Assembly (NCBI GenBank): GCA_964355855.1
Contig: CAYHFD010000001.1
Span: 9,921 to 73,920, forward strand
From: an uncultured Candidatus Saccharibacteria bacterium
GTDB lineage: Bacteria; Patescibacteriota; Minisyncoccia; Phycocordibacterales; XYD1-FULL-46-19
DNA length: 64,000 nt
Reading direction: 5' to 3'
Notes under the pieces: model-generated
What the model saw: only the letters and a program-made list of their open reading frames with translations
Database searches by the model: none
What the model was told of the DNA's origin: nothing
Shown: piece by piece, positions 2,534-58,299 of the stretch
Layout of the letters: each line of letters starts with the position of its first letter
Numbering within the stretch: position 1 is the first letter of the stretch
Translations under genes and position numbers: made by a program

Positions 2534-3100
2534 ATGCCAGAAAACAACAAACAGACAGTTTTTGACATTATTCGTTTTGCTCTTATCACCCTTATTATTG
2601 TTATCCCTGTTCGAGCCTATGTGGCCCAGCCTTTTATTGTCTCTGGGGTGTCGATGGACCCCACTTTCGAGAATGGTGAGTATTTAATCGTCGATGAATT
2701 TTCTTATCACTTTCGAACGCCTGAACGAGGCGAGGTAATAGTTTTTCGTTACCCCAAAGACCCATCTAAATTTTTTATTAAACGGGTTATTGGTCTGCCG
2801 GGGGAAACAGTGGAAATTGAAAATGACCACGTGTCAGTTGTTGGCACAAACAATGTTGATGTTGTCCTAGACGAACCCTATCTTACTGTCCCTCCTTTAT
2901 ATGTTCCCAAATCTATAAAGCTTGGTGCAACAGAATATTTTGTGATGGGCGACAACCGCAGTATGAGTCTCGACTCTCGTTCGTGGGGCCCAGTCACCAT
3001 TCAACATATCAAGGGTCGAGTGGGAGTAAGACTTTTTCCCATCACTGAGGCCGAAATTTTACCAGGTGACTACAGTAATCAGATTAAAACCACAAAATAA
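2534..3100 (+). CDS. lepB: signal peptidase I
   Basis: N-terminal TM, SMDPTF / VIVFRYPKDPSKFFIKRVIGLPGE / GDNRSMSLDSRSWG boxes. Confidence 0.85.
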   Translation: MPENNKQTVFDIIRFALITLIIVIPVRAYVAQPFIVSGVSMDPTFENGEYLIVDEFSYHFRTPERGEVIVFRYPKDPSKFFIKRVIGLPGETVEIENDHVSVVGTNNVDVVLDEPYLTVPPLYVPKSIKLGATEYFVMGDNRSMSLDSRSWGPVTIQHIKGRVGVRLFPITEAEILPGDYSNQIKTTK

Positions 3101-4683: not shown

Positions 4684-5068
4684 CAAGACAAGGCAGCCCC
4701 TACCCCGGCTGCCTTTTACCGACATTGCCGACCAAACTGCTGGAAAAAACTACATTTTAAGTTTAGTGTTTGTCGGTAGTACCACCGCCAAAAAACTAAA
4801 TCAGACTTACCGCCAAAAAAATTATATTCCAAATGTTTTGTCTTTCCCTTTGTCTAAAAATGAGGGCGAGATTTTTTTAAATCTTGCTTGTGCTAAACGA
4901 GAATATAAAAATTATGGATTATCTTACAAGAAATATATAGCTTATCTCTTTATTCACGGCCTACTTCATTTGAAAGGATACTCACATGGTAGTACAATGG
5001 ACATTAAGGAGCGTTCATTAATACAGCGCTTTCATCTTAATGACCAGAAACATCGTCACCGGCCTTGA
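4667..5068 (+). CDS. ybeY: rRNA maturation endoribonuclease YbeY
   Basis: HGLLHLKGYSHG metal-binding H..H.....H motif of the YbeY family. Confidence 0.8.
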   Translation: MLSIANKTRQPLPRLPFTDIADQTAGKNYILSLVFVGSTTAKKLNQTYRQKNYIPNVLSFPLSKNEGEIFLNLACAKREYKNYGLSYKKYIAYLFIHGLLHLKGYSHGSTMDIKERSLIQRFHLNDQKHRHRP

Positions 5069-6203
5069 TATTGGAACTGCCAGCATTAGGATTGTGGTCT
5101 GTGAATACAAAAACGGAAGCGCTGTGCCACAAGTCCTAGCCCTAGTTAAAAAAAATTCCCGCGGTCTTCGCCGTGGTTATATTTTGCAGTTTGACGAAGC
5201 GGTCGCGAGTATTAAAGAAGCCCTACAAGAAGCAGAGAGAGTGGCTGGTTGTAAAATTAAACAGGTTATCCTTGGTGTTGGCGGTGCCACCCTTGAATCA
5301 AAAATTATTGAGGGAGGGGTTATTGTCTCACGGGCCGATTCAGAAATAAACACCAATGATATTAATCGAGCCATTGAAGCCAGTGAAGCCGGCCTACCAG
5401 ATACCGCCAACAAGTCTATTATTCACCGTGTTCCAATTGCTTTTAAACTTGACGGTAAACGAGTCACCGGTAGACCAGAGGGACTAAAAGGTTCTAAACT
5501 AGAAGCCCAAATTTTGTTTGTAACTTATGCGTCAAACCATTTACGTGATTTTATTTCGGCGGTAGAAAGCGCTGGGGCCAGGGTGGATGATATCGCGGCC
5601 GCTCCTTTAGCTGCTAGTCTAGCTATCACCACTAAACTACAAAAAACCGCTGGCTGCGTGCTAGCTAATATTGGTTCGCAAACAACCTCTATTATAATTT
5701 TTGAAGAGGGTTTACCTCTTTCTTTAAAAGTATTTCCTATTGGTTCGACCGATATCACCAACGACATCGCCTTGGGCTTTCAAATTCCCCTCGAAGACGC
5801 TGAAAAAGTAAAAATAGGAGACATTGACGCCTCTATTCCCCAAAAAAAATTAGATGAAATTATTGAAGCCCGCTTGTCAGATATTTTTGAATTTATCGAA
5901 AATCATTTGAAAAGGTTGGGCCGCAACGGACTCCTCCCGGCTGGTATTATTATTACCGGCGGTGGGTCCGGTATTACCGAAATTGAACAGTTAGCTAAAG
6001 ATTATTTTAAACTCCCCGCCCGAGTCTCTATCCCAGCCGTGTCCACTGCCTCCAGAAACCAAATTCGCGAAACCGCTTGGTCGGTGGCTTATGGTCTCTG
6101 TTTGTTTGGGGCCGATTTTGAGGCCGAAGAATCATTGGGTCTGAAAATTGCTAAAACCACGAGACTAAACATCCTAAGGTGGATCAAAGAACTTTTGCCT
6201 TAA
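5040..6203 (+). CDS. ftsA: cell division protein FtsA (actin-like ATPase)
   Basis: IVTGLDIGTASIRIVV N-terminal phosphate-1 motif, IITGGGSG; directly upstream of ftsZ. Confidence 0.8.
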   Translation: MTRNIVTGLDIGTASIRIVVCEYKNGSAVPQVLALVKKNSRGLRRGYILQFDEAVASIKEALQEAERVAGCKIKQVILGVGGATLESKIIEGGVIVSRADSEINTNDINRAIEASEAGLPDTANKSIIHRVPIAFKLDGKRVTGRPEGLKGSKLEAQILFVTYASNHLRDFISAVESAGARVDDIAAAPLAASLAITTKLQKTAGCVLANIGSQTTSIIIFEEGLPLSLKVFPIGSTDITNDIALGFQIPLEDAEKVKIGDIDASIPQKKLDEIIEARLSDIFEFIENHLKRLGRNGLLPAGIIITGGGSGITEIEQLAKDYFKLPARVSIPAVSTASRNQIRETAWSVAYGLCLFGADFEAEESLGLKIAKTTRLNILRWIKELLP

Positions 6204-9122: not shown

Positions 9123-9614
9123 CTATTTCAAATAACTATCAAACCAGACCGCGTGGCAGGTGTAGCCACCCGGGTTTTTCTGCAGATAATCTTGATGGTG
9201 GGCTTCCGCTGGGTAGAATTTAGTCAACGGCTCCAAAGTGGTCACCACCGGCCCCGACCAGCGACCAGACTTGTTGACGATATCAATAAATTTTTCGGCT
9301 TCACTTTTTTCTTCATCACTCCCATAAAATATCGCCGAGCGGTAGGAACTGCCTTTATCATTTCCCTGTTGATTTAAAGTGGTTGGATTATGCACCCGAA
9401 AAAAGAAGTCGAGTAAGTTTTTATACGAAGTCTGGGTCAGGTCATATTCTATCTCCACTGCTTCAGCGTGGCCGGTGTGGTTTTGATAGGTCGGATTGGC
9501 CACACTACCTCCGGTATAACCTACTTCAGTATTAATAACCCCTGGTTCTTTTCGAATCAGTTCCTCTAGGCCCCAAAAGCAACCACCCGCCAAAACTATT
9601 TTTTTATTATTCAT
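9123..9614 (-). CDS. msrA: peptide methionine sulfoxide reductase A
   Basis: IVLAGGCFWGLEE catalytic motif. Confidence 0.9.
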   Translation of the reverse strand: MNNKKIVLAGGCFWGLEELIRKEPGVINTEVGYTGGSVANPTYQNHTGHAEAVEIEYDLTQTSYKNLLDFFFRVHNPTTLNQQGNDKGSSYRSAIFYGSDEEKSEAEKFIDIVNKSGRWSGPVVTTLEPLTKFYPAEAHHQDYLQKNPGGYTCHAVWFDSYLK

Positions 9615-9638
9615 ATTATTTACCCATTTCCTTATTCT

Positions 9639-9662
9639 CCTATTCGCGCGAATTAGAGATAT
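9639..9662 (-). repeat. 24-bp motif copy 1 (CCTATTCGCGCGAATTAGAGATAT)
   Basis: Exact copy; supplies last codons and stop of msrB; 26 nt upstream of msrA ATG. Confidence 0.9.
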
Positions 9663-10038
9663 CTTTGACCGAGATATTCTTAGTCACACCCGCTATAAAT
9701 TTCAGCGAAATCGAGTTCACACAATGGCGGATATTTTTGGCGGTTAGATTTTCACCGGTAAACACGTGGCCGAGGTGACCACCACACTTGGCGCAGGTAA
9801 TCTCGGTCCGCCGGCCATCGGCATCAACACTTTTTATTACCGCTCCCGCAATTTCATCATCAAAACTGGGCCAGCCACAATGTGACTCAAATTTATCTTG
9901 CGAATTATAAAGTGGCGCTTCACACTGCCGGCACACATACACCCCCGTGGCTTTATTATTAACATATTCACCCGTAAAAGCCGGCTCAGTGCCTTTATCA
10001 ATGATGACGTGTTTTTCTTGGGAGGTGAGGGGGTGCAT
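9640..10038 (-). CDS. msrB: peptide methionine sulfoxide reductase B (with repeat-derived C-terminal tail)
   Basis: CxxC...CxxC zinc site and HLGHVF / RHCVNS motifs; last 8 codons (DISNSRE-stop) lie inside the 24-bp repeat. Confidence 0.9.
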
Positions 10039-17840: not shown

Positions 17841-17879
17841 AAGTCTATTTTAACAATTCATAACTCAAAACACCAAGCG

Positions 17880-18113
17880 CTTTGGCAATATTGGTAATGG
17901 TCGAAAGTGTAGGTGATACATAGGTCGGACCCATGGAAATGGTGACCCTCACAGCCTGGGAAACCCCCACCCGCCATCGCAAGCTCAGGCGTTGCGGGGC
18001 AGGCACGGTTTTCCGACGAGCTTCGCTCTGCCTTCCTCCACGGGAAAACAGGTGTTTTCCCGACCCCTTTCCCCTGTAGGGTCACAGTTTTTTCACTGTG
18101 TTTTAAAAAACTG
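17880..18113 (-). ncRNA. GC-rich structured element G (homolog of 27480-27702), immediately 3' of tRNA-Glu
   Basis: GC-rich in AT-rich genome; shared blocks CCTGGGAAACCC, GGTTTTCC, CTCCACGGGA.A.CAGGTGTT.TCC with element R; 20-bp perfect inverted repeat 18074-18124 includes the tRNA 3' end. Confidence 0.4.
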
Positions 18114-18185
18114 TGACCCTACAGAGAATCGAACTCTGATTACCGCCTTGAAAAGGCGATGTCCTAACCGTTAGACGATAGGGCC
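18114..18185 (-). tRNA. tRNA-Glu (anticodon TTC)
   Basis: GGCCCTATCGTCTAACGGTTAGGACATCGCCTTTTCAAGGCGGTAATCAGAGTTCGATTCTCTGTAGGGTCA folds as cloverleaf; loop TTTTCAA. Confidence 0.85.
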
Positions 18186-18542
18186 AATATTCTATATTTT
18201 AAAACTATCTATTATATTTACCAATATTTATTAGGAACATCGCCTTTACTATTTAATGTGAAAAGGCTTACCCTATTACCTTGTAAACATCAGCAATTTC
18301 TCGTCTGTCAGCGAGAACCGGATAAAAGGTAAAGTAGTTTACCTTTTATTCCAATAACCGTTTCTTGCCCGCCGAAGCCTTGGCGAAGGTGGGGACGATA
18401 GGGCCCTAAATCCACTTTTGGCGAATCGGGCGAACAGTTTCAAAGGAACTGTTTTAGCCAAAAACCGACCAAAAACGAACACGCCTAATATAACATTTTT
18501 TTGAAAAAAGCCAAGAGTTAGGGTAGGATGTAGTAGTATCTT

Positions 18543-25026: not shown

Positions 25027-25391
25027 TGCTTGGGGGCGGGTTCGAACCGCCGACCCTTCGCTCTTCCAGAGCGTTTGGACTATATCATCATCCGTTCTGC
25101 TAATAAGCAGAGTTAGGAGGCAGGCGCTTCCCCTCAACTACGCTCGGGGTAAACCCTAAGCTAATCAAGAGTACTCCCTTTCGGGATAGTCTCTACACCT
25201 TCCGAGCACCACTTTTGAATTCTAGAATATTCTAAAAACCAAAAGTGGTGCTCGGCTTGGCTCGGGATTGTCCAAAAAATTAATCTTGGGTGTCCCCCGA
25301 ATTCACCTACTTTTTCGATCCACTTTACAATAGAAAGGCCCGAAGTTTTTTAGGGTCCAGGCGAATGCTCTACCAACTGAGCTACCCAAGC
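25027..25391 (-). tRNA. tRNA-Phe (inferred anticodon GAA) interrupted by a ~282-nt group-I-like intron in the anticodon loop
   Basis: 5' exon 25359-25391: GCTTGGGTAGCTCAGTTGGTAGAGCATTCGCCT; 3' exon 25027-25076: GAAGAGCGAAGGGTCGGCGGTTCGAACCCGCCCCCAAGCA; halves form perfect acceptor (GCTTGGG/CCCAAGC), anticodon (TTCGC/GCGAA) and T stems. Confidence 0.75.
25077..25358 (-). ncRNA. group I intron (self-splicing ribozyme candidate) within tRNA-Phe
   Basis: 5' exon ends in U, intron ends in G; contains GAGACTATCCCGAAAGGGAGTACTC (P7/GAAA-tetraloop-like) and GATGATATAGTCC (P7') reminiscent of the Tetrahymena/cyanobacterial cores. Confidence 0.65.
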
Positions 25392-27479: not shown

Positions 27480-27702
27480 TGATTTTCTGGCTGGTACCCC
27501 AGGCTCCTGGGAAACCCTGCTCCTCCGCTAAAGCTAGCGGCACGCGGGCGGTTTTCCCAATCCTTCCCCGCCTGCCATCGGCTGCGCCATCAGGCAATGG
27601 CGGGCAGGCTCCACGGGAGACCAGGTGTTCTCCTCTAAGCCGTTCGGCACGAGCTAGGCCGACCCCACTCCCTGCCGGGGGCACAACTCGTTCCCCTCGT
27701 TG
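27480..27702 (-). ncRNA. GC-rich structured element R (homolog of 17880-18113), immediately 3' of tRNA-Arg
   Basis: Shares ordered sequence blocks with element G; helix CGGGAGACC-AGGT-GTTCTCC covaries with CGGGAAAAC-AGGT-GTTTTCCCG of G; 14-bp inverted repeat GCCGGGGGCACAAC/GTTGTGCCCCCGGC includes tRNA 3' end. Confidence 0.4.
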
Positions 27703-28408: not shown

Positions 28409-28410
28409 AG

Positions 28411-28481
28411 TGCGGAATACGAGAATCGAACTCGTGTCTATTGCTTGGGAAGCAACCATTTTGCCACTAAACTAATTCCGC
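28411..28481 (-). tRNA. tRNA-Gly (anticodon CCC)
   Basis: GCGGAATTAGTTTAGTGGCAAAATGGTTGCTTCCCAAGCAATAGACACGAGTTCGATTCTCGTATTCCGCA. Confidence 0.85.
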
Positions 28482-28602
28482 AGAAATGATGCCTAACTTG
28501 ATGTGTGGGTGAACTATATCCGCAAAATTACTACTGGATTTTCATAAATTATACTCGCATGACTCGTTAATTTATGGAAGAAGCAACCATTTTGCCACTA
28601 AA

Positions 28603-28910
28603 CCCACACACTAACTTTTGTTTTGGAAAAGTTCTAAAGTTTTACCAATACGCTTGAGAAGCTGATTACGCGCTTGCCCCCTTAATTTTAAACTACTCTC
28701 CCTGTTGCGCGCCTCCTCCTCAATCGAATAAGCTTCATAATACAGTAGTTTAAACGGGCGTCTAGATTTGGTTGAACGAACTTTTCCTAAATTATGTTCT
28801 TCTAGACGTTTCTTTAAATCATTGGTTGAGCCAACATAAAGATCATGGTCTTTTAAACTTCCTAAAATATACAAGAAGAACATAATTTGAAACAAAAGTT
28901 AGTGTGTGGG
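28603..28910 (-). mobile_element. miniature GIY-YIG cassette with perfect 20-bp terminal inverted repeats and 5-bp TAAAC target duplication, inserted in a duplicated tRNA-Gly 5' fragment
   Basis: CCCACACACTAACTTTTGTT at 28603-28622; exact reverse complement at 28891-28910; flanks GAAGAAGCAACCATTTTGCCACTAAAC and TAAACTAATTCCGCA copy the tRNA-Gly 5' region (28449-28481). Confidence 0.7.
28611..28883 (-). CDS. GIY-YIG nuclease family protein (COG2827-like, ~90 aa)
   Basis: YILGSLKDHDLYVGSTNDLKKRLEEHN = GIY..YVG...R..EH catalytic motif; ATG at 28883 (TTG at 28895 alternative). Confidence 0.8.
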   Translation of the reverse strand: MFFLYILGSLKDHDLYVGSTNDLKKRLEEHNLGKVRSTKSRRPFKLLYYEAYSIEEEARNRESSLKLRGQARNQLLKRIGKTLELFQNKS

Positions 28911-28934
28911 TAAACTAATTCCGCAATAAAAATT

Positions 28935-54548: not shown

Positions 54549-55334
54549 CTAACCTTGGTCATCGTCATCATCGTCATCATCGTCATCATCGTCATCATCG
54601 TCATCATCGTCATCATCGTTTAAATTGTCGCCTTCGTCATCGCTTTCGCCATCTTGATCTTCTTGTTCATCATCCCTATCCTCATTGTCTAAGTTATCCT
54701 CGTCATTAATTAAATCCTGACTAGTTTTCTTGTCCTTTATTTTTATTTTAACTTCTTCTTTGCCATTGTTAAATTTAATTTCAATTTCAATACGAGAGGA
54801 CAATAAATCCGTCGGCACTCGTCCAGTCACCCCCGCCACTTCTAGTATCTCATTTATCCGCGCCAAAGTTTGAGGACCAACTACTCCCACCTGTTCTATT
54901 CTTACTTTATTTTGAAAACGTTTAACAGCTTGTTCGGTTAGTGGCCCAAAAAAACCAGTAATTACTCCTTCTGGGTATAAAGCTGGATCAGTCGCTAAAA
55001 TAGTTTGCAATTCTTTGACATCATCTCCCGACATACCAATTTTTAAACTTCTTTTTAACTTAAGCTGGGCTAATTCCGCATTTAAGGATTGATTAACCGT
55101 CTCAGAAACAACTAATTGTGCTTGTAATTTTTTAATTTGAGCCAATAATGATGCGATTTTTTCCTCAAAAGAGCCCAATGCACTGTTTGCAGTAGAGGAC
55201 GTGGTTGAGGTTGTACTTGAAACAACCGATTCATTAGTACTAGTTGCCGTGCTGGTTGCCGTCTGAGCAAGCCCCTCACTTAAGGTAAAAAAGAAACCAA
55301 AAAGCACCAAGACTACATATCCGATTTTTCTCAT
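54549..55334 (-). CDS. secreted peptidoglycan-binding-domain protein with C-terminal poly-Asp tail
   Basis: Signal peptide, Ser/Thr-rich linker, coiled coil, PG_binding_1-like MSGDDVKELQTILATDPALYPEGVITGFFGPLTEQAVKRFQ, then ~25 consecutive Asp. Confidence 0.7.
   Translation of the reverse strand: MRKIGYVVLVLFGFFFTLSEGLAQTATSTATSTNESVVSSTTSTTSSTANSALGSFEEKIASLLAQIKKLQAQLVVSETVNQSLNAELAQLKLKRSLKIGMSGDDVKELQTILATDPALYPEGVITGFFGPLTEQAVKRFQNKVRIEQVGVVGPQTLARINEILEVAGVTGRVPTDLLSSRIEIEIKFNNGKEEVKIKIKDKKTSQDLINDEDNLDNEDRDDEQEDQDGESDDEGDNLNDDDDDDDDDDDDDDDDDDDDQG
54558..54618. repeat. (GTCATCATC)n microsatellite encoding the poly-Asp tail
   Basis: Seven near-perfect 9-bp units; direct read. Confidence 0.9.
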
Positions 55335-55458: not shown

Positions 55459-57240
55459 TTACTGTCTCTTATGTTTGGCGCGTTCAGCTTCGGTTAAATA
55501 CTGTTTACGCAAGCGCACACTTTTCGGTGTAATTTCCAAATACTCGTCGTCGGACATTATTTCCAGTCCCCGCTCAATAGTAATTGGTAGTGGGGGAATT
55601 AAATAAAGTTTTTCATCAGTACCCGAAGCACGCATATTGGTTAGCTGTTTACCCTTAGTTGGGTTCACCGCCATTTCTTCACCCTTGGACGTATTGCCCA
55701 CCACCATGCCCTCATACACCTCGGTCGCCGCTTCAATATACAAAGTTCCGCGCGTCTGCAAATTTGCCAGCGAAAAACCTAAAGCTTTGCCAGGAGCCAT
55801 CGAGGTCATAGAACCCACGGCCCGCTTTTCTATTTCCCCAGCATAAGGTTTAAAACCCAATACCCGACTGGCAAATATGCCTTCACCTTTAGTGTCAATA
55901 ATAAACTGCCCCCGATAACCCAACAAACCACGAGTCGGCCCCTCAAGCGTAAGACGCACAATTTTATCATCAGTCTTCATATTGGTCATATGGACCGCCC
56001 GTTTGCCCAGCTTCTCAATCACTGCCCCCTGGGCTTCAGTTGGAATTTCGATCGTCACCTCTTCATATGGTTCTGATTTTACCCCCTCGATATCTTTAAT
56101 AATCACTTGCGGTTGGGACACCGACAGCTCAAACCCTTCACGACGCATATTCTCGAGCAGGATCGCGATATGCAATTCCCCGCGGCCGTAGACTTTCATT
56201 GTATCCCCTTCAAAGTCGACCCTTAGTCCGACATTGACTTCGAGCTCTTTCAACAACCGCTCGCGGATCTGCCGACTAGTCACAAATTTCCCTTCGCGGC
56301 CACCAAAAGGGGAGTCGTTGACCAAAAAATTTAGGGCAATCGTCGGTTCGTCGACATGAATAAAAGGCAATATCTCCGCCTCGGGATTATCACAAATAGT
56401 GTCACCAATATAAATTTCCGAGAGCCCAGCCACCATTACAATATCGCCGGCGACAGCCTCTTTCACCTCTTGGCGGCTAATCCCCGCAAAAGTGAAAAGT
56501 TTGGTAATCTTGCCCTCTTCCACTTGGCCATTCGATTTTTTTATATAAATTTTAGTTCCGTCTTTGATGACGCCTTCGTAAACCCGCGCAATCGCCAGCC
56601 GACCCAAAAAGTTGTCGTAAGCCAAGTTAAAAGGCTGGGCCCGCAGGGGCGCCGTGTTATTACTGGCGGCTGGTGGCACATGTTCGAGAATCGTATCAAG
56701 TAGAGGCTCAAGGTTTTTCCGTTCATCATCCAGTTTTTTCATCGCTACCCCATCTTTACCAATCGCGTACACCGTAACAAAGTCTAATTGTTCGTCAGTG
56801 GCCCCTAGTTCCATAAAAAGTTCCAAAATTTCATCATGAGCCCGGGCCGCATCAGCTGCTGGCTTGTCGATTTTGTTTAGCACCACGATCGGCTTGTGAC
56901 CAATTTCAAGCGATTTTTTCAACACAAAACGAGTTTGGGGCATGGGTCCTTCTTGGGCATCTACCACCAAAAGCACCGAGTCGATCGAACGCAAAACGCG
57001 CTCAACCTCGGAACCAAAGTCGGCGTGGCCGGGAGTATCAACAATATTTATCTTGGTCCCTTTGTAATTGATCGAGGTATTTTTGGCGTAAATAGTAATA
57101 CCCCGCTCGCGCTCCAGATCATTAGAATCCATCGTGGTCCCTTCACCAGTCATCCCCGTCTCACGCATAATAGCGTCGGTGAGCGTAGTCTTACCGTGGT
57201 CAACGTGGGCAATAATGGCGATATTACGTATCTCAGTCAT
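55459..57240 (-). CDS. typA: translational GTPase TypA/BipA
   Basis: [32 protein letters not shown]; BipA-specific C-terminal domain. Confidence 0.95.
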
Positions 57241-57249
57241 ACTAGAATC

Positions 57250-57470
57250 TAAAGTTAATTAAACCACTTCTCGCCCCGTAGGAAGCTTGGCTTTCCTACT
57301 GGGGTGGTCCACACTTGTCCCGTAGCCAGCGTACTCGCTGTGGTACCGGGATGGGCAATAATAGCGATGTTACGAATTTCGGTCATTGTAGAAATAATTA
57401 TTGTATTAGCGACCCGCCCGCAACGCCTAAGCTTGCGATGACGGGCGGGTGTTACGAATTTCTGTCATAA
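57250..57470 (-). promoter_or_regulatory. bipA leader with two degenerate upstream copies of the first ~7-11 codons, each preceded by a GC-rich hairpin
   Basis: Minus-strand ATGACTGAGATACGTAATATCGCCATTATTGCCC (57207-57240) recurs as ATGACCGAAATTCGTAACATCGCTATTATTGCCC (57352-57386) and ATGACAGAAATTCGTAAC (57451-57468); hairpins at 57274-57304 and 57414-57450. Confidence 0.5.
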
Positions 57471-57546
57471 AAACAAAATGGCCGACACGGGCCAGAAGTA
57501 ATAGTAATAATACCAACAATACCAACTAAAGTCAACAATCCGCTTT

Positions 57547-58299
57547 TTATTCAAACTCTAAATATAATGGGGCGTGGTCAGAGACTTCATCTGGTAAAAC
57601 ATTAAAATTCTTAAGCTCTATCTCCGGTGAAATGAAAATATAGTCAGCATAGGGTTCAATATGACCAAATTTATATAAACTAGTCCGGGTCGTTGCAATT
57701 TTACTTTCGCTAACCAAATTGCGTAAACCACTTTCCTCTAACAAGCGAATGCTCTCGGTTTCCGGCCGAACATTAAAATCGCCACAGATTATTTTTGGCA
57801 AATTAAAACCTTTTAGAAAACCGAGGATCCGCTGTGACTGCGCGAGACGCTCTGGTGTATCATGTTTTAAAAGCGTCCAGTGCCCATGAAGGTTGGCCAC
57901 TAGATACTCGAGACTATTTTTTTCTATTCGAAACCATTGCAGAAGACGATTATGGTCAGCGTCAGGGTCTTCGTCCACCGGAAAATTACTATTTTCATGA
58001 ACCATAATAGCACCGTCTTCTTTTACTTTAATATCTTTCCGGACAAAAGTGGCTAAACCATATTCCCCATTATATAACGAAGAAAAATAGCCGACGTGGT
58101 TAGATAAAAGTTTTTCTATTTCTTCGTACAGACGGGGGTTAATATTTTTAATTTGCATCGGGTTAGCTTCGGTCGCCGTGCCACCCTTAAAAACTTCTTG
58201 AAAGCAAAAAATATCAATACTATTTTCTTTTTCCTTTATAAAGGATAGCAACGGTTCAAGCACCTTTCCACCCCAAGTGTTTAAGGTAATAAGTTTCAT
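57547..58299 (-). CDS. endonuclease/exonuclease/phosphatase (EEP) family nuclease
   Basis: LITLNTWGG, FCFQEV, GDFN, SDHAPL catalytic blocks. Confidence 0.75.
   Translation of the reverse strand: MKLITLNTWGGKVLEPLLSFIKEKENSIDIFCFQEVFKGGTATEANPMQIKNINPRLYEEIEKLLSNHVGYFSSLYNGEYGLATFVRKDIKVKEDGAIMVHENSNFPVDEDPDADHNRLLQWFRIEKNSLEYLVANLHGHWTLLKHDTPERLAQSQRILGFLKGFNLPKIICGDFNVRPETESIRLLEESGLRNLVSESKIATTRTSLYKFGHIEPYADYIFISPEIELKNFNVLPDEVSDHAPLYLEFE

Follow-up and report, generated by a model that had tools for sequence, protein, structure and literature searches.

Displaced starts and GC-rich hairpins upstream of typA in a Patescibacteria genome suggest scars of cassettes that replace gene ends

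Introduction

The replacement of a gene end by an incoming endonuclease open reading frame (ORF) is known from fungal mitochondria. There, mobile endonuclease ORFs (mORFs) carry a foreign C-terminus of a gene and leave the native one downstream, the targets being atp6 in Allomyces macrogynus and atp6, atp9, cox2 and nad3 in Glomus (PMC3630166). Here we describe a bacterial locus that resembles these systems, the region upstream of typA (bipA) in a 64,000-nucleotide (nt) stretch of contig CAYHFD010000001.1 (hereafter the window). The source is an ultra-small bacterium of the Patescibacteria (Paceibacteria-type), with a genome assembled from Hainich groundwater. The leader of typA holds two displaced copies of the gene's own start together with two GC-rich hairpins, and we propose, with a probability of roughly 0.6, that it consists of the scars of nuclease-associated cassettes that replace gene ends and that have here lost their ORF.

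Other described elements share parts of this arrangement. Small hairpin-forming mobile repeats include the GC clusters of yeast mitochondria, the double-hairpin elements of Allomyces and the palindromic elements of Rickettsia, and the repetitive hairpin-forming elements of sponge mitochondria are reportedly comparable. The GIY-YIG homing endonuclease SegB of phage T4 is directed at tRNA genes (PMC2330249), and GIY-YIG genes have been described in rRNA insertions of the bacteria considered here (PMC11270868).

Results

Anatomy of the typA leader

Positions are those of the window, and typA and all parts of its leader lie on the minus strand. The gene is intact (55459-57240 in the ORF list, 593 amino acids (aa)), and an identical protein carries the Pfam architecture GTP_EFTU...BipA_C and the NCBI name translational GTPase TypA. 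The degenerate 18-mer ATGACNGARATHCGTAAY, which covers the first six codons, is present at three places in the window, compared with 0 expected in shuffles. Its occurrences mark the real start, which is the first 36 nt of the gene (copy 1, 57240-57205), and two upstream copies (copy 2, 57386-57351; copy 3, 57468-57451), spaced 146 and 82 nt apart. The initial annotation had reported both upstream copies, and its description of a repeatedly duplicated 5' gene end holds, the pseudo-copies matching typA nt 1-59 and 1-25.

The region upstream of typA spans 306 nt and includes a promoter, a leader, two pseudo-starts, two hairpins and two spacers. Farthest from the gene is a strong sigma-70-type promoter, taken as ancestral (57507-57535; TTGACT-17-TATTAT with a TG extension, 10 of 12 consensus positions), whose -35 region TTGACTTTAG is identical in the relative L128. 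The ancestral leader follows (57469-57494), a 5-bp GC hairpin and a T run that abuts the ancestral ATG; it was picked up by a terminator-like scan, and its design is common to the relatives described below. Directly behind it, at the ancestral start codon position, begins pseudo-copy 3, which is split into typA nt 1-19 (ATGACAGAAATTCGTAACA, 57450-57468) and nt 20-25 (TCGCTA, 57407-57412). Between the two parts sits hairpin B (57413-57449), a 37-nt member of the CCCGCCCGCCATCGCAAGCTCAGGCGTTGCGGGCGGG family recognised by its fold and by the family scan, without target duplication. Once hairpin B is removed, pseudo-copy 3 reads as typA nt 1-25 with the 37-nt insertion after nt 19, and copy 2 contains the 16-mer AATTCGTAACATCGCT across the insertion point without interruption. 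This makes hairpin B a precise insertion in the oldest pseudo-start.

An AT-rich spacer of 20 nt (spacer 1, ATACAATAATTATTTCTACA, 57387-57406) leads to pseudo-copy 2 (57328-57386), which matches typA nt 1-59 with a local alignment score of 61 (shuffle maximum 43). In this copy nt 1-36 are intact (ATGACCGAAATTCGTAACATCGCTATTATTGCCCAT, 57386-57351), and the continuation is degenerate beyond about nt 35, with indels. Next come insertion A (57264-57327), a GC-rich body recognised by its inverted repeat and its fold and containing hairpin A, and a second AT-rich spacer of 23 nt (spacer 2, TTTAATTAACTTTAGATTCTAGT, 57241-57263) directly 5' of the real ATG. The two spacers have TTCTA-NN-ATG in common. 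Copy 3 opens an ORF of 13 codons and copy 2 one of 43 codons (57386-57255; translation ending in WFN), whose stop codon lies within spacer 2, 14 nt ahead of the typA ATG; one gene caller had annotated this 43-codon pseudo-start as a gene.

Both hairpins are stable, hairpin B with -26.3 kcal/mol (z = -5.8) and hairpin A (core 57274-57303, extended 57264-57310) with -21.2 kcal/mol (z = -3.0). As noticed initially, AAGCTTG is present in both, on the plus strand. Hairpin B itself had also been recognised, but one base off (57414-57450), and its reverse-orientation copy in a tRNA-Glu-linked element is real (33 of 37 bases, E ~1e-8), at 17962-17998 rather than 17964-18000. Neither hairpin is followed by a T run in the terminator-like scan, the sole find of which was the small leader hairpin with its T run (57479-57494). 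Under gathering and permissive thresholds, Rfam 15 gave nothing better than E = 4 in 57150-57600 and scored the tRNA alone in 17850-18500.

The leader (380 nt) is identical in three separate assemblies (L081, L082, L129), one of which represents a strain with two substitutions elsewhere in typA, and it is therefore not an assembly artefact. Today typA is probably transcribed from the old promoter, now ~270 nt upstream of the ATG, through both scars. The transcript would carry a 5' untranslated region (UTR) of ~270-280 nt with two upstream ORFs (13 and 43 codons). These ORFs and the hairpins may be by-products of the insertions, with a possible side effect on typA expression.

Divergence of the start copies

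Copies 1 and 2 differ at 6 of 36 bases, all of them synonymous third-codon positions (simulated chance 7e-5), and copies 2 and 3 at 1 of 25. Under nested insertion copies 2 and 3 would be the older pair, yet this pair is less diverged than copies 1 and 2. The synonymous-only pattern and the smaller divergence of the older pair argue against an in-place duplication followed by neutral decay. As judged from these sequences, they argue instead for a current typA 5' end that would have evolved as part of a functioning gene elsewhere, that is, for a replacement from another lineage. Alleles resembling copy 1 are present in the relative L130. Two traits of mORF-bearing genes are thus found at typA: the functional and the displaced end differ as alleles of different lineages do, and the target end is partly duplicated, with the native end displaced beside the intact gene.

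The empty site in relatives

The closest relatives (L121/L124, L126, L128 and L130), whose typA proteins are 83-93% identical and were traced to contigs, have a single typA start behind an intergenic region of 130-150 nt. A promoter, a small GC hairpin and a T run precede typA in L121, L126, L128 and L130, as they do upstream of copy 3 in the window. Because a single start lies behind a homologous leader in these relatives, copy 3 represents the ancestral start, and everything from there to the real ATG was added in this lineage. The extra copies are by the same token recent, lineage-specific insertions and not a conserved regulatory leader. An empty, uninterrupted gene in close relatives is a further trait shared with mORFs.

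Extra typA starts were also sought in 80 species-level loci. The peptide search returned lepA only and the 18-mer search three weak matches; the one inspected, in L028, proved to be a chance match inside another gene. Two N-terminally extended typA calls (P0005 and P0028) are read-through of ordinary leaders, and a truncated typA (P0007) adjoins an assembly gap.

The leader design as such is conserved in five lineages, with a T run that reaches the start codon in four of the five and ends ~40 nt upstream of it in L130. Independently of the scars, this hairpin and T run could be a genuine attenuator or a temperature-sensitive structure for typA.

A dispersed family of 37-nt hairpins

A metagenome pattern scan for the 21-nt hairpin core (20 specified bases, exact match required) returned 38 loci, compared with ~2 expected by chance in our own estimate, and these fall into 31 distinct flanking contexts with sharp 37-nt boundaries around CCCGCCCGCCATCGCAAGCTCAGGCGTTGCGGGCGGG. 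The link first drawn between the leader and a GC-rich repeat family is thus real, and the family is far larger than had been apparent. An exact-core search favours conserved copies, and the apparent invariance of the family is partly a matter of ascertainment. In one case a C-G pair is replaced by T-A, which in one of the two possible stem registers is a compensatory change. The same architecture recurs in JGI, ENA and NCBI assemblies from unrelated studies, while a scan of viral contigs with the hairpin core gave 0 matches.

Members of the family are found in frame in an mnmA-like gene, in intergenic DNA and, most often, in truncated copies of tRNA-gene ends. Both orientations relative to the neighbouring gene occur, which points to a DNA-level element and not to a strand-specific RNA signal. 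In about one-third of the 38 loci the hairpin splits a displaced tRNA-gene end near an intact tRNA. The truncated end copy lies 40-340 nt from the intact tRNA (L083, L087, L088, L097, L102, L103, L107, L110, L112 and L120), and the junction is uninterrupted in the adjacent tRNA gene in L087, L088, L102, L103, L110, L112 and L120, with partial or flanking matches in L083 and L097. In L102, several stem positions distinguish the tRNA-Cys pseudo-copy from the intact gene, an indication of a different allele.

In five contigs (L084, positions 3029-3065, and L096, L098, L114 and L115) the 37-nt hairpin is translated in frame, as YPPA[F/I]ASSGVAGG, within a loop of the mnmA-like tRNA thiolase gene. 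By eye, the coding flanks of these contigs are clearly diverged and the hairpin is almost unchanged. L118, considered as another protein-gene example, proved to contain two paralogous genes.

The genomes hold several such families. A second GC-hairpin family, CCTGCCTGCCGG(C/T)AGGCAGG, splits tRNA pseudo-copies in L083, L100 and L102, sometimes beside the 37-nt hairpin, and further families occur in L118 and in L104/L119 (GTCATTGCGAG... types). A search for hairpin half-sites flanking an ORF, prompted by the idea of a collapsed terminal repeat, found none and returned only related hairpin subfamilies.

GIY-YIG genes at tRNA loci

At tRNA genes the cassette has a regular order, namely an old 5' fragment split by a GC hairpin, a gene for a GIY-YIG protein of ~80-90 aa, and the intact gene. 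L083, L088 and L107 each have an ORF of 77-80 aa between the hairpin-split 5' pseudo-copy and the intact tRNA, with a stop codon that abuts the tRNA; all three ORFs are assigned to GIY-YIG (PF01541, E = 1e-12 to 8e-16). A tblastn search of all fetched DNA with these proteins revealed further ORFs in L072, in L025 and in the window. L072 has two, assigned to GIY-YIG by tblastn only, each of which lies 2-6 nt upstream of a tRNA-Thr gene and is preceded by a 5' pseudo-copy of that tRNA-Thr, split by a different GC hairpin. Counting these and the tRNA-Gly locus of the window, a split pseudo-copy is present at all six tRNA-adjacent GIY-YIG ORFs (one each in L083, L088, L107 and the window, two in L072). 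The complete units are only ~300-350 nt long and lack a recombinase. Their GIY-YIG proteins are bare catalytic domains, the nearest solved structures being uncharacterised UPF0213 proteins (1zg2, 1ywl). By analogy with the full-length versions in L088, L072, L083 and L107, spacer 1 of the typA leader would be the position of the GIY-YIG ORF.

The tRNA-Gly locus of the window (28410-28925, minus strand) is a variant of this layout in which the ORF lies inside the split pseudo-copy. The intact tRNA-Gly occupies 28410-28481. Within a 5' pseudo-copy made up of 28910-28923 and 28576-28602 lies an element (28602-28911, minus strand) whose ORF (28611-28883), found by tblastn, is a GIY-YIG gene (PF01541, E = 3.7e-15) flanked by perfect 22-nt inverted repeats (28602-28623 and 28890-28911). 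A second pseudo-copy (28512-28523), with a remnant of the left repeat, sits between the ORF and the intact tRNA, a two-scar arrangement as at typA.

Copies of tRNA ends are not confined to loci chosen for the hairpin. Among unselected loci flanking typA, 4 of 24 tRNAs have copies of their own ends (≥12 nt, within 700 nt), and in the window at least three of five tRNAs are affected (tRNA-Glu at both ends, tRNA-Arg and tRNA-Gly). No significant GIY-YIG coding remnant was detected in the 5' and 3' elements of tRNA-Glu, the tRNA-Arg element or the tRNA-Gly spacer.

In L025 (region 4923-5724) the GIY-YIG ORF lies just upstream of a transfer-messenger RNA (tmRNA) gene, and the copy in L075 (region 9600-9725) is disrupted. 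A segment of ~55 nt 5' of the tmRNA recurs ~330 nt on, after the tag-coding region.

Elements at other genes of the window

GC-rich elements of 150-220 nt lie 3' of tRNA-Glu (18113-18185, minus strand) and of tRNA-Arg, at 17935-18112 and 27485-27701 on the minus strand, and similar ones occur in L078, L083, L100, L110, L112 and L113. In each case the intact tRNA has no encoded CCA, and after it come a perfect inverted copy of its 3' end (15-20 bp), a GC-rich body with the motifs CCCGTGGAG, GGAAAACCG and GGGTTTCCCAGG, and a displaced CCA-bearing 3' end, without an ORF. The tRNA-Glu element contains the degenerate copy of hairpin B and terminates in a displaced tRNA-Glu 3' end with CCA (~17943-17957). 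These elements appear to be the 3'-end counterpart of the 5' scars. We also considered them as genes for tmRNA-like or tRNA-like RNAs, but neither Rfam nor ARAGORN supports this and displaced tRNA 3' ends fit better.

Upstream of tRNA-Glu lies another element (18186-18405, minus strand) with a 12-nt copy of the tRNA 5' end (GGCCCTATCGTC, 18394-18405), 208 nt from the tRNA. The copy breaks at tRNA position 12/13, the same point as the hairpin insertion in L110, and is followed by a different GC hairpin, CCTTCGCCAAGGCTTCGGCGGGCAAG, with a 26-nt match in L084.

At 25028-25361 (minus strand), a group I intron (RF00028, 54 bits) abuts sequence like the 3' half of a tRNA (GGCGGTTCGAACCCGCC...), which suggests an intron-containing tRNA gene missed by ARAGORN. 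A 24-nt motif, CCTATTCGCGCGAATTAGAGATAT, with the palindromic core TTCGCGCGAA, has copies at 9639, 61350, 61658 and 62977, three of them within 1.7 kb. Directly downstream of typA, the ORF at 54549-55334 (minus strand) encodes a long acidic tail with a poly-Asp run from a GAT/GAC repeat (54550-54620).

Discussion

A proposed route to a double scar

We suggest that the leader arose by two successive insertions into the first ~25-60 nt of typA. Each would have brought a short AT-rich spacer and a fresh 5' end, fused in frame to the rest of the gene, and would have stranded the previous start upstream as a pseudo-start, the oldest of which still stands behind the original promoter and leader. Hairpin B sits as a clean insertion in this oldest pseudo-start, and hairpin A lies after the younger one. 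In our judgement it is highly probable that the leader consists of scars of insertions, which delivered replacement 5' ends and a mobile hairpin. Direct observation here covers the anatomy of the leader, the empty site, the hairpin family with its precise insertion, the nuclease architecture at tRNA genes and the synonymous-only divergence.

The driver would most likely be the cassette that is found complete at tRNA genes in this genome and in related ones. A small GIY-YIG gene would sit just upstream of a conserved gene, and its product would break that gene in a cell that lacks the cassette. Repair would then copy donor DNA, with homology used on the gene side and, on the opposite side, either the short gene fragment or illegitimate joining, so that the nuclease gene and a foreign gene end would enter together and displace the native end. 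Later loss of the nuclease gene would leave the hairpin and the spacer, as at typA. The cut in typA, the former ORF in the spacers, the route of repair and the action of the hairpin are thus parts of the scheme that we infer, and for a GIY-YIG nuclease as the driver at typA, an analogy with the tRNA loci, we see about even odds.

Several observations weigh against this proposal. A search of the typA leader with seven GIY-YIG proteins (tblastn, all E > 0.1) did not find an endonuclease ORF or remnant. Neither a cassette nor a pseudo-copy was found at typA in the 80 species-level relatives or the five closest ones, and typA as a target therefore rests on one lineage. The GIY-YIG proteins of ~80-90 aa have no obvious DNA-binding domain, which leaves site-specific cleavage putative. 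The intact tRNA is often identical to its pseudo-copy (L110, L120), which would expose the restored target to renewed cleavage. A sliding comparison of typA identity with relatives could not have revealed a foreign 5' patch, synonymous sites being saturated at ~80% identity. Hairpin A has no known relatives, with no other copy in the fetched sequences. Several roles are conceivable for the 37-nt hairpin: a collapsed terminal repeat, a separate palindromic mobile element whose survival is limited to dispensable pseudo-copies, or a means of destroying, within the pseudo-copy, the target or a repeat prone to recombination.

Alternative explanations

The initial annotation had read the pseudo-starts as decoy start sites and the hairpins as attenuators. 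In a fuller form of this idea, decoys or upstream ORFs and attenuating hairpins would have been selected to tune typA, for example in the cold. The stability of the hairpins suits such a role, as do the ancestral promoter upstream of everything and the two upstream ORFs, which share the first codons of typA and the second of which stops 14 nt before its ATG; selection on the peptide could also account for differences that are synonymous only. However, the upstream ORFs and structures are absent from the five closest and the 80 species-level relatives, the close ones among which keep a simple leader, and hairpins A and B lack a T run. Hairpin B is moreover promiscuous, occurring in tRNA pseudo-copies, in mnmA-like coding sequence and in intergenic DNA and in both orientations, and the same architecture is found at tRNA genes, where the logic of translation and upstream ORFs plays no part. 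We consider selected regulation unlikely as the reason for these features. Equally doubtful is the integration, twice over, of larger elements that carried the gene end in their attP site and were later deleted almost entirely. Integration at tRNA genes classically leaves direct repeats of gene ends around the insert, Bro-N and helix-turn-helix-like genes lie just beyond the tRNA-Glu element, and synonymous divergence fits a gene end from another host. Yet no integrase was seen beside any split pseudo-copy examined, where flanking ORFs were scanned in part, and the complete units at tRNA genes are tiny (~300-350 nt for hairpin, pseudo-copy and GIY-YIG ORF). Gene 5' ends are hit as often as 3' ends, and the hairpin lies inside the displaced repeat and not beside it.

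The proximity of the tandem copies (146 and 82 nt) and the near identity of copies 2 and 3 would also be expected if the start had been duplicated in place by slippage or template switching, perhaps provoked by GC palindromes, which can stall replication, and if the upstream copies had then decayed neutrally. We regard this as improbable. Neither the spacer ahead of copy 1 nor that ahead of copy 2 is related to the native leader that precedes copy 3, the hairpin belongs to a conserved dispersed family, and the pair expected to be the younger is the more diverged one. All six differences are synonymous, with a chance of ~0.003 by our own estimate even if only the pseudo-copy drifts, and of 7e-5 in the plain simulation. 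Far less probable still is an assembly artefact produced by the tandem joining of conserved-segment variants from different strains. The window does come from a metagenome assembly, and the duplicated segment is highly conserved among species, but three separately assembled samples, one a strain variant, agree over the 380-nt leader, the hairpin junctions are precise, and assemblies of unrelated studies in JGI, ENA and NCBI contain the same architecture.

Implications

If replacement of gene ends by nuclease-associated cassettes is the correct explanation, it accounts for a recurrent oddity of Patescibacteria, the truncated tRNA ends and GC hairpins beside intact tRNA genes. It would provide a mechanism for foreign patches in conserved essential genes of these streamlined and probably competent bacteria, and it would suggest that stand-alone GIY-YIG (UPF0213-like) proteins, a large uncharacterised family, may serve as mobility nucleases, at least in the case of these members from Patescibacteria. 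Annotators would be warned that pseudo-starts and hairpins upstream of genes can be scars and not regulators. For typA the practical outcome is a long structured 5' UTR. The leader itself is a relic, and its value is as a thread that exposes a common, apparently undescribed process shaping Patescibacteria genomes.

More tentatively, and at somewhat less than even odds, these observations may point to an undescribed minimal selfish element in Patescibacteria, composed of a stand-alone GIY-YIG gene of ~80-90 aa and a short GC palindrome, that invades gene 5' ends. Its targets would be conserved essential genes (tRNA, tmRNA and typA), with 3' ends hit in a related form, and the replacement end would let it move between species with nothing but the conserved gene in common. 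As non-autonomous derivatives of this element, the 37-nt hairpins would also spread in frame into coding sequences. The typA leader would be the first scar in a protein gene, and the element would drive mosaic, horizontally patched housekeeping genes.

Comparison with known systems

Short palindromes are the feature shared with small hairpin repeats, which likewise are GC-rich, dispersed in an AT-rich compact genome and inserted precisely in intergenic DNA. The in-frame insertion in protein genes, here the mnmA-like gene, recalls the palindromic elements of Rickettsia. Unlike such repeats, the hairpins described here are only 37 nt long and almost unchanged across many Patescibacteria lineages, with the reservation that a search by exact match is biased towards conserved copies, and they are strongly associated with displaced gene-end fragments and GIY-YIG genes. 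Repetitive extragenic palindromic (REP) sequences with their associated tyrosine transposases (RAYT), and the palindromes derived from IS200/IS605, are similar in being imperfect, 20-40 nt long, present in many copies and without target duplication. The family differs from REP/RAYT in the head of its consensus, which is CCCGCC and not GTAG or CGTC, and in having copies within genes, including in-frame ones in a coding gene, and within pseudo-copies instead of extragenic ones only. No Y1 transposase was seen at the individual loci examined.

The Seg proteins of T4-like phages resemble the genes described here in that a free-standing GIY-YIG gene adjoins tRNA genes. SegB promotes intronless homing, in which the tRNA gene is cut in genomes without SegB and segB is inherited with flanking markers through break repair (PMC2330249). 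Unlike the proteins of the present loci, those of the Seg group have DNA-binding domains; no partial copy of the target is left behind, and hairpins play no part. Cleavage has been demonstrated for SegB and is putative for the GIY-YIG proteins here.

A full-text literature search did not find gene-end duplications with GIY-YIG genes, or this hairpin family, in Patescibacteria, and the fungal mORFs remain the closest parallel. In both, a conserved gene receives an endonuclease ORF (LAGLIDADG or GIY-YIG in mORFs) and, with it, a replacement end; the native end, moved out of place, is kept nearby as a pseudo-fragment; and differences between the inserted and the native end point to another lineage, with close relatives that have an empty gene. 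The replaced end is the 5' one here and the 3' one in mORFs, and the setting is the chromosomes of bacteria (Patescibacteria), where tRNA genes and typA are the targets. The nuclease is a bare catalytic domain of ~80-90 aa, and a GC-rich hairpin typically splits the displaced fragment. The typA leader lacks the ORF, which is present in L083, L088 and L107, twice in L072, and at the tRNA-Gly locus of the window. An endonuclease ORF that replaces a gene end thus has its precedent in fungal mitochondria, and what is new here is that the hosts are bacteria, that the 5' end is the one replaced, that tRNA genes and typA are the targets, and that a hairpin splits the pseudo-copy.

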